Source: Heptranchias perlo (lineage: Eukaryota). From it: a stretch of 64,000 nucleotides of DNA. This document shows, one piece after another, positions 59,036 to 64,000 of this stretch. Numbering within the stretch: the first letter of the stretch is position 1; each line of letters begins with the position of its first letter. The notes beneath the pieces were generated by a model. It worked only from the letters and a program-made list of their open reading frames with translations, ran no database searches and was not told the origin of the DNA. The stretch lies in NCBI RefSeq assembly GCF_035084215.1, contig NC_090342.1, positions 38,316,001-38,380,000 of the forward strand, written 5' to 3'. The translations under genes and the position numbers were made by a program.

Positions 59036-60302
59036 CGTTTAATTACATGAATTAATTCAGAATGCATTGCCCCTTTACTTGCATTAGGGTGATAAAATTA
59101 TAAACAGATTAATAATCCAAAGCAGGAACAGCACTTCTCTCCCCAAATAAAAAGTTTGTGGAACATTTTTTGTCAGTACTCCTTTAACAAAAAACCTCCA
59201 TTGCAATGGATTGACTGTGTGTTTTAAATTCTCAGGTGATGCAATAAAATGATATGCTGATTATGGGCTTCACTGTATCTGTCTACATACCATGGAATGA
59301 CATCTCATTACCAAGAGATACAATCACTGAGCTGGTTGTTCACCTTCAAACTATTGACGTTAAATGATCTCCCTAACAGTCAGTCTCTGTGATGCCAGCA
59401 CCAGTCGCTGTTAAAAAAACAAAATGAAGTATTTACCTTTTGGTGAGGGTAAACCTTCTTCTTTCTTTTCAGTTTGCTCTCTCCCTTCTCTCCCAGTTGG
59501 GTCGCCTTTCACCTTCCCCAGCCGAGGGGGCAGGCGAGGATCCTACTCCACTTTTGCCAATATGTGACAGTGGCCCAGGGCTGAATTTCACAGCCGACAG
59601 CCTCCCGACTAAAATTCCTAGACGAGACTTCTGTTGAAGGAGTCTTGCTGTCTGTGCACTCTCTTTAAGTGATGATTACTAAAAAAACCTGAGCATATTA
59701 AAATTCTAAAATTGTCCCCAGTGGGCTTTTCTTTTTGATATAGATGGAGTCTGATGTATAATGACATACAACAGAATCTTTGGAAATAGGCTTTTATAGA
59801 GCTGGAAAAGCAGACTACTCACATCTATCAAATATACAGCTAGTGGTGTGGTAAATATCAGAAATCACCGTCAAAATCTTACAATAGTTTAAGAGCAATC
59901 TATTTTGAATATGTCCGCTCCTTACCTTCCTATGACGACTTAAATAGTGAACATGTGGACAGCATGTGGGACAAGATCAGACTCAAAACTTAAATCCTAT
60001 TTGTAACCTCAGCAGTTGTTTTTGAATGAAGGTGTTAGAATATTATCATGTGTTGCTGTTTAAAGTTGCAGCCTTGAAGGCTGCCTCTCCAGAGTCTTTG
60101 TTGTACCATTTCAATCCATCATCTCACAATCTGTGCGATGTGTTCATTTTTCTTGCTTTGGATTATTATTCTGTTCATAATTTGAGAAAAGAAAGTCCCA
60201 TTCATGTATTTCTTTGATTATAATTGTGTTAGTTGGTTAAGTCACCCAATGATATTATATGGTTTTATTCATTTCTAGAGTGATATAATTTCTATCCGAA
60301 GA

Positions 60303-60577
60303 GGTGGACAAATGCAAGGAATCTTACAACACCAGGTTATAGTCCAACAATTTTATTTTAAAATCACAAGCTTTCGGAGATTTTATTTTAAAATCACAAG
60401 CTTTCGGAGATTATCTCCTTCGTCACCTGACGAAGGAGATAATCTCCGAAAGCTTGTGATTTTAAAATAAAATCTCCGAAAGCTTGTGATTTTAAAATAA
60501 AATTGTTGGACTATAACCTGGTGTTGTAAGATTCCTTACATTTGTCCACCCCAGTCCATCACCGGCATCTCCACATC
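60303..60577 (+). mobile_element. Palindromic Penelope-like insertion (inverted terminal copy + tail) with 14-bp TSD
   Basis: 123-bp inverted arms at 60303-60425 and 60428-60550 (1 mismatch), then a unique tail CCAGTCCATCACCGGCATCTCCACATC. ATCCGAAGAGGTGG occurs at 60294-60307 and 60578-60591. Confidence 0.85.
60422..60490 (+). ncRNA. Hammerhead ribozyme motif with duplicated 3' half
   Basis: GTCAC-CTGACGA-A-GGAGA-TAA-TCTCC-GAAA-GCTT-GTGAT, then a second TCTCCGAAAGCTTGTGAT 30 nt later. Confidence 0.8.
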
Positions 60578-60846
60578 ATCCGAAGAGGTGGTAGCATAGC
60601 AAATATAATTAATGAACCTGTATCTATCTCACATTTCTGTTGTTTATTAGATGGTCTCTAGCCACTGGAAACCATTATTTTTATTGTTGTAAGTGTATTG
60701 AATTTGAAATCCTCAATATTTTATGCCACCAATTTTACAAGATGGAAAGGTGAAAGTTAACTGAAAAGCTCTATACAATCTGTAATCTGATTTGGGATGT
60801 GCCCTGCAGTGAAAGTTGTCCATTTATACCTCATTTTCTTCTTCAG

Positions 60847-60912
60847 GTCGTACAGAAATCAGAAAACCATCACCAGAGCTGGAGGATCCATTCCTGAATG
60901 ATCGATGCAGAG
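60847..60912 (+). CDS. FBLN1: FBLN1 exon 5 (gene continues beyond right edge)
   Basis: GRTEIRKPSPELEDPFLNDRCRG, with the fibulin-1 motif EDP(Y/F)LNDRCRG. 66 nt, phase 1-1. Confidence 0.93.
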
Positions 60913-61286: not shown

Positions 61287-62997
61287 GGGTGTTAAATTGG
61301 GCCTTGTAGCACTCATTTTTTTAGGCGCTACGCGGCCAACTAAGACTCGAAAATGGGGTCCGAGATGCGTGCACAAACTTCCGATAGGAAGTACGCAGGG
61401 CGCCATCTTGGTAAAGGGGTTTGTGCGTGCACCTAACAACCGCTGGCAGCATGCAGAGTAGGGAGATTATGACACAAATCAGTGTGCAACGCTGATTTGA
61501 AGGCACTGCTGCCATTTTGCAATTTCACACTCCAGCCAACACACAGCTGAACACAATGTTAAATCGCATGAAGAACCCCCCCACCAGCACTATTTAAAGG
61601 GATCATGAAGTACTTACAGGTTAGTTGCTGGATTATTTCTTCTGGCTGCTGGTGCAATTGTACGCGTTTCAATAAGGTTTCAGTACTCTACAGGGAGTGG
61701 TCTGGCTGATCTTGCAGTACTTTAGTGTCATTTAAAATATTTTATTGAAAGAAGTTGCTTCCAGACATGGGTGGCCTGCTAGGGCTTCCTCTGGGAATTG
61801 GACATAACTGGGAGAATAAACAGAGGCACAAAGAGCAGGACAAGCTGCTAGAAGAGGCAGGAGGAGGAGGAGCAGGGCACTCAGCAGAAGGTCATATCAG
61901 CGGAGGATCTTCAGGGAGCAATTCTCTTACCTCAACTTCAGCGATGACCAGTGCATCAGACGTCTTCGGTTCACTAAAGAGGTCGTGACTGAAATCTGTC
62001 AACTGCTGCATCCACAACTGCAACCTCAAAGCAAGGGAAGGACAGCATTGCCTGTGGCTGTCAAGGTGACCGTGGCTCTTAATTTTTAGGCCTCTGGCTC
62101 CTTTCAGGCTGCTGCTGGAGATATAAGCAACATCTCTCAGTTTGCAGTGCACTGCAGTATAAGGGCGATCACTGAGATTCTCTGTACAATGAGAAACACA
62201 TTCATCTCATTCCCTCTTGCCAGAGACAAGCAGGAGGAATGAGCACAAGATTTTGCTCAGATTGCAGGCTTCCCCATGATGCAGGGTGCCATTGACTGCA
62301 CGCACATTGCCTTGCATGCTCCCCATCTGAACTCGGCCATATTCATGAACAGAAAGGGATTCCACTCCCTCAATGTGCAGCTGGTGTGCGACCACAGGCA
62401 GCGCATCATGCAGGTCAGTGCCCGCTATCCCGGCAGTAGTCATGATTCATTCATTCTGTGCCAGTCCTCTGTTCCACCTGTATTTGAATCAGCATGGAAA
62501 GTCAAAGGCTGGCTATTGGTCGACAGGGGTATCTCCTCATGACATAGCTCATAACTCCAGTCAGGAACACATGCACACGTGCACAGCAGGCCTACAGTGA
62601 GAGCCAATCTGTCACAAGGAACATTATAGAGCACACCCTAGGCGTCCTCATGCAACGCTTCCACTGCCTGGACCGCACAGGAGGAACCCTGTGGTACTCA
62701 GCTAAGCGGGTATCCAGATTTGTGGTAGTATGCTGCATGCTGCACAACCTGGCCATTATGAGGGAATAGCCATTGCCTCCGCCGATCAGGCGAGAAGCTG
62801 AGGAGCAGGAGCAAGAGGAGGAGGCAGAGGAGAAGGAGAAGGAGGAGGTGGAGGATGACGAAGTGCAAGAGGAAGTGGAAGAAGAGGAAGAGGAAGGGAG
62901 GCTACAACATCGGCCTTTTCTGCCAGGGCTCTACATGATCAGGTTATTCATGAGCGATACCAGAAACCTCAACCGCACCTCCCCATTCACCAACAGT
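61287..62997 (+). mobile_element. Harbinger DNA transposon with near full-length but disrupted transposase
   Basis: FSDDQCIRRLRFTKEVVTEICQLL..ALPVAVKVTVALNF*ASGSFQ..QGAIDCTHIAL..NRKGFHSLNVQLVCDH..YPGSSHDS..CCMLHNLA, with stops and frameshifts. Left TIR GGGTGTTAAATTGGGC. Confidence 0.92.
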
Positions 62998-64000
62998 CCC
63001 AGTGCAGCTACAACACTGGCATCTACCCAACAATGTGGAAAATTGCTCAGGTATGTCCAATCCACAAAAAGCAGGACAAATTCAATCCGGCCAATTACCG
63101 CCCCACCAGTCTACTCTCAATCATTAGCAAAGTGATGGAAGGTGTCATCGACAGTGCTATCAAGCGGCACTTACTCACCAATAACCTGCTCACCGATGCT
63201 CAGTCTGGTTTCCTCCAGGACCACTCAGCTCCAGACCTCATTACAGGCTTGGTCCAAACATGGACAAATAGCTGAATTCCAGAGGTGAGGTGAGAGTGAC
63301 TGCCCTTGACATCAAGGCAGCATTTGACCGAGTGCGGCACCAAGGAGCCCTAGTAAATTTGAAGTCAATGGGAATCAGGGGCAAAACTCTCCAGTGGCTG
63401 GAGTCATACCTAGCACAAAGGAAGATGGTAGTGGTTGTTGGAGGCCAATCATCTCAGCCCCAGGACATTGCTGCAGGAGTTCCTCAGGGCAGTGTCCAAG
63501 GCCCAACCATCTTCAGCTGCTTCATCAATGACCTTCCCTCCATCATAAGGTCAGAAATGGGGATGTTTGCTGATGATTGCACAGTGTTCAATTCCATTCG
63601 CAACCCCTCAGATAATGAAGCAGTCCATGCCCGCATGCAGCAAGACCTGGACAACATCCAGGCTTGGGCTGATAAGTGGTAAGTAACATTTGTGCCAGAC
63701 AAGTGCCAGGCAATGACCATCTCCAACAAGAGAGAGTCTAACCACCTCCCCTTGACATTCAACGGCATTACCATTGTTGAATCCCCCACCATCAACATCC
63801 TGGGGGTCACCATTGACCAGAAACTTAACTGGACCATCCACATAAATACTGTGACTACAAGAGCAGGTCAGAGGCTGGGTATTCTGCAGCAAGTGACTCA
63901 CCTCCTGACCTCCCCAAAGCCTTTCCACCATTTAGAAGGCACAAGTCAGGAGTGTGATGGAATACTCTCCACTAGCCTGGATGAGTGCAGCTCCAACAAC
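62998..64000 (+). mobile_element. Young CR1/L2-group LINE (same family as 11460) inserted in the Harbinger element
   Basis: Near-identical to 11460-12440; RT motifs LDIKAAFD, GVPQGS, FADD. Confidence 0.95.

Follow-up and report, generated by a model that had tools for sequence, protein, structure and literature searches.

The hairpin at positions 60294-60591 of the window (the whole stretch analysed, 64,000 nt of Heptranchias perlo contig NC_090342.1, positions 38,316,001 to 38,380,000) is very probably a Penelope-like element (PLE) that inserted recently, 5'-truncated and head to head; its hammerhead motif is predicted to be permanently buried and probably does not act as a ribozyme in the host gene. 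An earlier note on this DNA had read the hairpin as a ribozyme that a tandem duplication made competent as a monomer and that its own antisense arm kept switched off. The coordinates given there, the target-site duplication (TSD), the palindrome, the 30-nt duplication and the positions of the core all hold against the sequence (Table 1).

Table 1. Features of the hairpin insertion and of the next host exon (positions in the window).
Feature	Positions	Strand	Remarks
TSD, left copy	60294..60307	+	ATCCGAAGAGGTGG
Inverted "short" arm	60308..60425	-	pLTR end without tail, with 30-nt duplication; minus-strand core GUGACGA (C3G)
Head-to-head junction	60415..60438	.	CTCCTTCGTCA-CC-TGACGAAGGAG, TCA/TGA overlap
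Native minimal hammerhead	60423..60459	+	stem I UCAC 60423-26 / GUGA 60456-59
Hammerhead core CUGACGA	60427-33	+	extra A at 60434
Stem II	60435-47	+	strands 60435-39/60443-47
GAAA, then AGCU palindrome	60448-51 (GAAA)	+	native cut after U60455 (CUU)
30-nt tandem duplication	60441..60500	+	second AAGCUU-GUGA, 60480-89, permits cis helix III
Sense arm remainder	60501..60550	+	ACATT site 60539-43, end point of the family's short arms
Unpaired Penelope "tail" part	60551..60577	+	stops just before the ORF start codon position of full-length L061
TSD, right copy	60578..60591	+	ATCCGAAGAGGTGG
Next host exon, fibulin-1-like linker	60847..60912	+	ends NDRCR

The assembled insertion measures 284 nt with one TSD copy counted, and the two TSD copies are identical at 14/14 nt. 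Its arms (60303-60425 and 60428-60550) are 123 nt each and 122/123 identical, with the single mismatch at 60315 (C, where the opposite arm implies T). Because the last five nucleotides of the left TSD copy (GGTGG) are also the element end, as microhomology, some target DNA is counted in the "123 bp" arm length. In each arm the two 30-nt units of the tandem duplication are identical (60350-79/60380-409 and 60441-70/60471-500). The predicted hairpin fold reaches -212.9 kcal/mol (z = -34), and 0/200 shuffles folded as well. A miRNA-gene reading was rejected, as the scores arise from the perfect stem of a repeat.

When the genome was searched with the sense arm, 28 matches were returned, many as inverted pairs. 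Counted by exact pattern, the 34-nt core has 4,980 genome copies and the 34-nt 3' segment 19,649 (i.e., at least that many arms), 1,544 loci have a pair of facing cores no more than 30 nt apart, and the 24-nt junction of 60415-60438 recurs at 527 loci; the reversed-pattern control gave 0 each time. A near full-length parent, L061 (G000:C1:19670500-19676500), has two direct pLTR copies 3,039 nt apart, in the order inverted partial pLTR, pLTR, RT and GIY-YIG frames with one stop between them, and tailed pLTR. The RT frame matches RVT_1 (PF00078, E 2e-10) and the other GIY-YIG (PF01541, E 9e-4, under the curated cut-off); an RT with C-terminal GIY-YIG between pLTRs marks the parent family. The combination of an inverted 5'-truncated copy with a one-sided 30-40 nt tail was found here and in 18/18 short pairs, and the TSD agrees with membership of the EN+ Penelope-like elements. 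By this architecture the insertion at 60294-60591 is a recent member of the PLE inverted-pLTR insertions. In the literature on hammerheads in shark introns and on shark Penelope elements, no account of this family was found among titles and abstract openings. Elsewhere, L062:3120-3529 is a large inverted copy with the inversion junction inside the ORF and long inverted coding arms, and the copies at L003, L014 and L016 sit inside another RT-encoding, LINE-like repeat (labelled by eye).

The exon layout around the insertion (ANATO, linker, EGF) fits an intron of a fibulin-type host gene, putatively fibulin-1 intron 4, with name and numbering borrowed from the human gene. Two of the three candidate upstream exons match Pfam ANATO (anaphylatoxin-like), at ~58.2 kb (E 9e-5, over the curated cut-off) and at ~49.8 kb (E 0.0017, under it), and the third, at 54.6 kb, had no ANATO match in Pfam. 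EGF exons lie downstream of the linker exon, and a contig of 2,132 nt, from what is probably an RNA run, covers the linker exon alone. ESM Atlas gave no usable match for one host exon. A stretch of the next intron (61300-61500 and 62001-64000 of the window) is GC-richer (0.51 at 62-64 kb) and is probably another repeat.

Conservation across copies supports the earlier note's assignment of the motif, which to judge from its core and helices is the family's own Penelope minimal type I hammerhead. Among 201 arms (103 distinct), C3-A9, G12-A15.1, U16.1, H17 and helices I and II were conserved, an overstated conservation since the sample was retrieved using these very motifs and is biased. Pairs 1-4 were kept in 197-200/201 arms for helix II and in 180-192/201 for helix I, with wobble changes in both helices; the fifth pair of helix II was kept in 156 of the 201, with A-U, G-C and C-G alternatives. 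N7 varied and H17 was U in 201/201, while the search pattern left no freedom at G15.2 and C16.2. Stem I (UCAC/GUGA) is seen family-wide and is therefore inherited, the junction supplying the fifth G-U pair only. The features resemble those described for metazoan PLE minimal hammerheads in excerpts of PMC4209133: a CUGANGA core, an extra nucleotide after A9, a G10.1-C11.1 pair, a 4-bp helix I and palindromic 15.2-16.2. Helix II, on the other hand, has 5 bp here and 7-8 bp there. The scan with hammerhead models that the earlier note had proposed came back empty: Rfam returned no hammerhead family at E <= 10 and unspecific hairpin matches only, under gathering scores. Because minimal forms are without helix III, this miss lowers only the claim to a canonical hammerhead. 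On the minus strand, C3G is accompanied by a broken first stem I pair, and the predicted inactivity of that core is supported: C3G abolishes cleavage by the anole PLE hammerhead in the portion of PMC11167929 available.

Could the plus-strand motif cleave? The claim of monomer competence survives in its geometry: each of the pairings put forward (AGCUU/AAGCU, GAUUUUA/UAAAAUC and GUCAC/GUGAU) is allowed, and the cis helix III with a cut after U60485 is valid, but only if the RNA is trimmed to start at 60422-60423. For the RNA 60423-60493, the minimum-energy fold is a three-way junction, with an active-fold probability of 0.45 when A14-U17 pairing is allowed and 0.049 under the strict definition. 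The longer RNA 60420-60500, which had been expected to cleave, is predicted instead to misfold, as UCGUC/GACGA pairs over the core (active-fold probability 4e-4). By nearest-neighbour predictions without proteins, 10 extra nucleotides of antisense arm already make the active fold cost 17 kcal/mol, and in the intron context the cost is 82.3 kcal/mol (predicted probability 1e-58). In cotranscriptional folding, the core was paired with probability 0.72-1.0 at 3' end 60433 and 0.99-1.0 at every later 3' end tested; this pairing predates possible closure of stem I by ~55 nt of transcription, and the 5' strand of stem I itself belongs to the lock. Sequestration of the core by the antisense arm, as the earlier note had proposed, is thus what the predictions give, with pairing near certainty on emergence. 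Moreover, no transcript is expected to begin at 60423, because in this copy the antisense arm replaces the pLTR TATA box of native copies. Helices I-III together are predicted not to form in the natural transcript, and the motif is predicted to be in a permanent off state rather than in a switch.

The proposed built-in switch would have the duplication-made monomer ribozyme held off by the antisense arm and, once released, cutting the host pre-mRNA. This we consider scarcely credible, although the geometry is valid, 60423-60493 folds best as a three-way junction and this very duplication is found nowhere else in the genome. Several lines of evidence oppose it: i) an RNA switch passes between two states of similar energy in response to a trigger, and here the gap is 82 kcal/mol, with 17 kcal/mol imposed by 10 nt of antisense arm, and no trigger or release route was evident; ii) the stem I 5' strand is locked, there is no cotranscriptional window and the TATA box is lost to the antisense arm; iii) the lock is mass-produced (527 identical junctions), stem I is the family's own and duplications occur at 51 loci, so that lock and duplication both recur as by-products; iv) the copy, being young, shows no sign of selection; v) the cut site is CUU, ranked last of the NUH triplets in the accessible part of PMC8879150. 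Published experiments bear on both sides. According to excerpts of PMC4209133 (Cervera and de la Pena), a single minimal PLE motif gave no cleavage, and an engineered helix III allowed some cleavage by a PLE minimal hammerhead, mostly at non-physiological Mg2+; what was engineered there arises here by natural duplication, but within a hairpin that buries the motif. The anole PLE hammerhead, in the portion of PMC11167929 available, cleaved only when its protein was present. A-to-I editing as an unlocking route was rejected by reasoning, as it must erase most of the 82 kcal/mol and would hit core adenosines. As a gene switch the locus would be striking; the evidence points to a common by-product of a retroelement. 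The trimmed 60423-60493 RNA would naturally imitate, within a single molecule, the elusive dimer of PLE hammerheads.

The exact 56-mer across the duplication was found only at this locus, once per arm, so no sibling source with an identical duplication turned up genome-wide by this pattern. A sister subfamily has one duplication with this breakpoint (L003), and a looser duplication pattern gave 53 matches at 51 loci, all of which were inspected. A complete core precedes the first palindrome in 17/51 loci: the active fold is locked by at least 52 kcal/mol in 12 of these 17 and costs 8-19 kcal/mol in the other five (L085, L090, L094, L097 and L099). Two loci, L092 (G000:C7:60530370) and L113 (C27:37347407), likewise have a core, a helix III rebuilt by a short duplication and an antisense-arm lock, with active folds costing 1.5-1.6 kcal/mol when trimmed and 52-60 kcal/mol in context; in both the duplication is in one arm only. 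Duplication in both arms was confined, among the 51, to the locus at 60294-60591, for which fold-back copying, later arm-to-arm conversion or a lost donor are each possible explanations.

The duplication loci are natural constructs for asking whether PLE hammerheads cleave with a cis helix III. At L085 (G000:C4:98674314), L090 (C6:29288388) and L094 (C8:45565219), two complete minimal hammerheads stand in direct tandem at a distance of ~39-44 nt and lack a full antisense arm in the vicinity; these are candidates for natural cis-dimers, their outer active site having a predicted cost of 8-15 kcal/mol. L097 (G000:C11:45269747-45269850) has three hammerheads in a row with a 44-nt unit, a retrozyme-like miniature tandem.

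Perfect palindromes are difficult to assemble, and among the short-read contigs listed none reached across the duplication junction by 31 nt in both directions; nor could that junction be isolated among the family contigs. An assembly artefact in the duplication or the palindrome interior is nonetheless very unlikely. Single-copy short-read contigs span both outer insertion junctions with 0 differences and no break at the TSD, in runs that may come from the same sample as the assembly. The central junction is seen in read contigs at depth 136-400, versus 14-18 for the flanks, and at the 527 assembly loci; moreover, one base sets the arms apart, and same-breakpoint and related duplications are present elsewhere (L003, L004).

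The ends of the arms bear on how such copies arise. Ninety-four arms, all lying within the first 12 Mb of contig C1, were mapped against 46 references; their ends were called by alignment, so that a few bases of microhomology blur them. Thirty-seven of the 94 extend past -60 from the core; of the remainder (57), those ending at -15..+5 number 35, with 10 at +6..+26, four at -59..-16 and seven at +32 or later. Only 1/94 ends at the ribozyme cut site (+27..+31), and a hammerhead-cleaved template for the insertions was rejected on this count. A TATA-like word lies within 60 nt upstream of 73/115 non-palindromic cores (42 are without one); in the 24 commonest patterns it lies at -35 to -46 and is followed by TCAC/TCAT initiator-like repeats. 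Transcription is predicted from these words to start about -12 to -6 from the core. Each of the 18 short head-to-head pairs combines one tail arm with one short arm, and the longer of the two was the short arm in nine, the tail arm in eight and neither in one; at L183, L184 and L204 the short arm exceeds the tail arm by 40-50 nt.

Pairs with a single tail, either arm being the longer, and ends at the predicted start together suggest two cDNAs made on uncleaved RNA. The element enzyme would nick both target strands and prime two cDNAs, at two internal start sites (the ACATT site and the tail end) of an uncleaved RNA; each cDNA would extend ~90-125 nt, as far as the RNA 5' terminus a little before the hammerhead core, and the two would be joined via the TCA/TGA microhomology. 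The 30-nt duplication may reflect a polymerase slip at AAT microhomology; either fold-back synthesis or later conversion between the arms would then have carried it over to the other arm. Somewhat below an even chance, in our estimate, the locus is one of thousands of footprints of such Penelope double priming, i.e., strand nicks, two start sites, run-off at the cap site and head-to-head join. The arm-end sample agrees with the in vitro use of uncleaved RNA and two start sites by the anole PLE: in the portion of PMC11167929 available, two internal RT start sites flank the tail, both target strands are cleaved and extended, and uncleaved RNA is the main template. No published statement of a double-priming model for Penelope was found by a search that missed most subscription papers and supplements.

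Double priming must be weighed against pure fold-back, in which a single cDNA, self-primed at its 3' end, would have copied itself into both arms together with the duplication. We regard this as rather unlikely. Copying of the tail arm cannot yield a longer short arm, which is nevertheless seen in 9/18 pairs; the short arms stop at a fixed site; and the junction at 60294-60591 would require a 3-bp stem with a 2-nt loop. On the other hand, the presence of the duplication in both arms (1/51 loci) means that two independent cDNAs alone do not account for it, and no sibling exists elsewhere that could be its source by the exact 56-mer. L096 and L100 look as though a short fold-back had come first and a longer second arm had then been joined on, and Arkhipova (2013), in the part of PMC3846280 available, read palindromes at inverted junctions as self-priming on an antisense template. 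A hybrid, two cDNAs with local fold-back, is likely in some copies and is possible for the one at 60294-60591. Fold-back would alter the origin of the hairpin, not the burial of the ribozyme.

Long RNA duplexes are subject to ADAR editing. In the pre-mRNA, the element is predicted to form a 123-bp double helix that would be spliced out and possibly ADAR-edited. L1 twin priming makes inversions from two priming events on opposite target strands with a microhomology join, and its two pieces are different parts of one RNA. The double priming proposed here differs in that both arms copy the same segment, which produces a palindrome.

As in GIY-YIG Penelope-like elements, to the extent that excerpts of PMC3846280 and PMC8557442 describe them, the parent family has an RT and GIY-YIG ORF, an inverted arm and a TSD, and its pLTRs have the TATA and TCACT-like initiator, the ACATT site and the one-ended 30-40 nt tail; those papers treat the inverted, 5'-truncated copy with a tail on one side as typical of PLEs. 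The insertion at 60294-60591 departs from a typical PLE in being without an ORF, in joining two ~120-150 nt pLTR ends at the hammerhead and in its private 30-nt duplication in both arms. PLE motif pairs on opposite strands 100-700 bp apart have also been reported (excerpts of PMC4209133). Like the anole Poseidon element PAc (Frangieh 2024, PMC11167929, available portion), the family of this insertion has two putative RT start sites within ~120 nt after the hammerhead that define the tail, and would use unprocessed RNA as template; in PAc the hammerhead overlaps the ORF start, whereas in this family ~120 nt separate the core from the start codon that follows it. With non-LTR retrozymes, as portrayed in excerpts of PMC7229834 and of bioRxiv 10.64898/2026.07.22.740005, the insertion shares a type I hammerhead, a PLE relation and a non-coding nature. 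Retrozymes are, however, head-to-tail tandems of 170-400 nt units that self-cleave to circular RNAs (PMC7229834, excerpts), and retrozyme identity was rejected for this single head-to-head insertion.

The origin of the inverted ends and tails of PLEs is called an open question in the accessible part of PMC8557442; models of both can be tested on the thousands of young junctions that this genome contains. If true, double priming would account at once for the inverted pLTR and for the tail on one side only, and more than 1,500 self-silencing hammerhead hairpins in a single vertebrate genome would stem from it. One subfamily has given rise to at least 1,544 short near-perfect hairpins, of which the intronic ones are candidate substrates of ADAR or Dicer.
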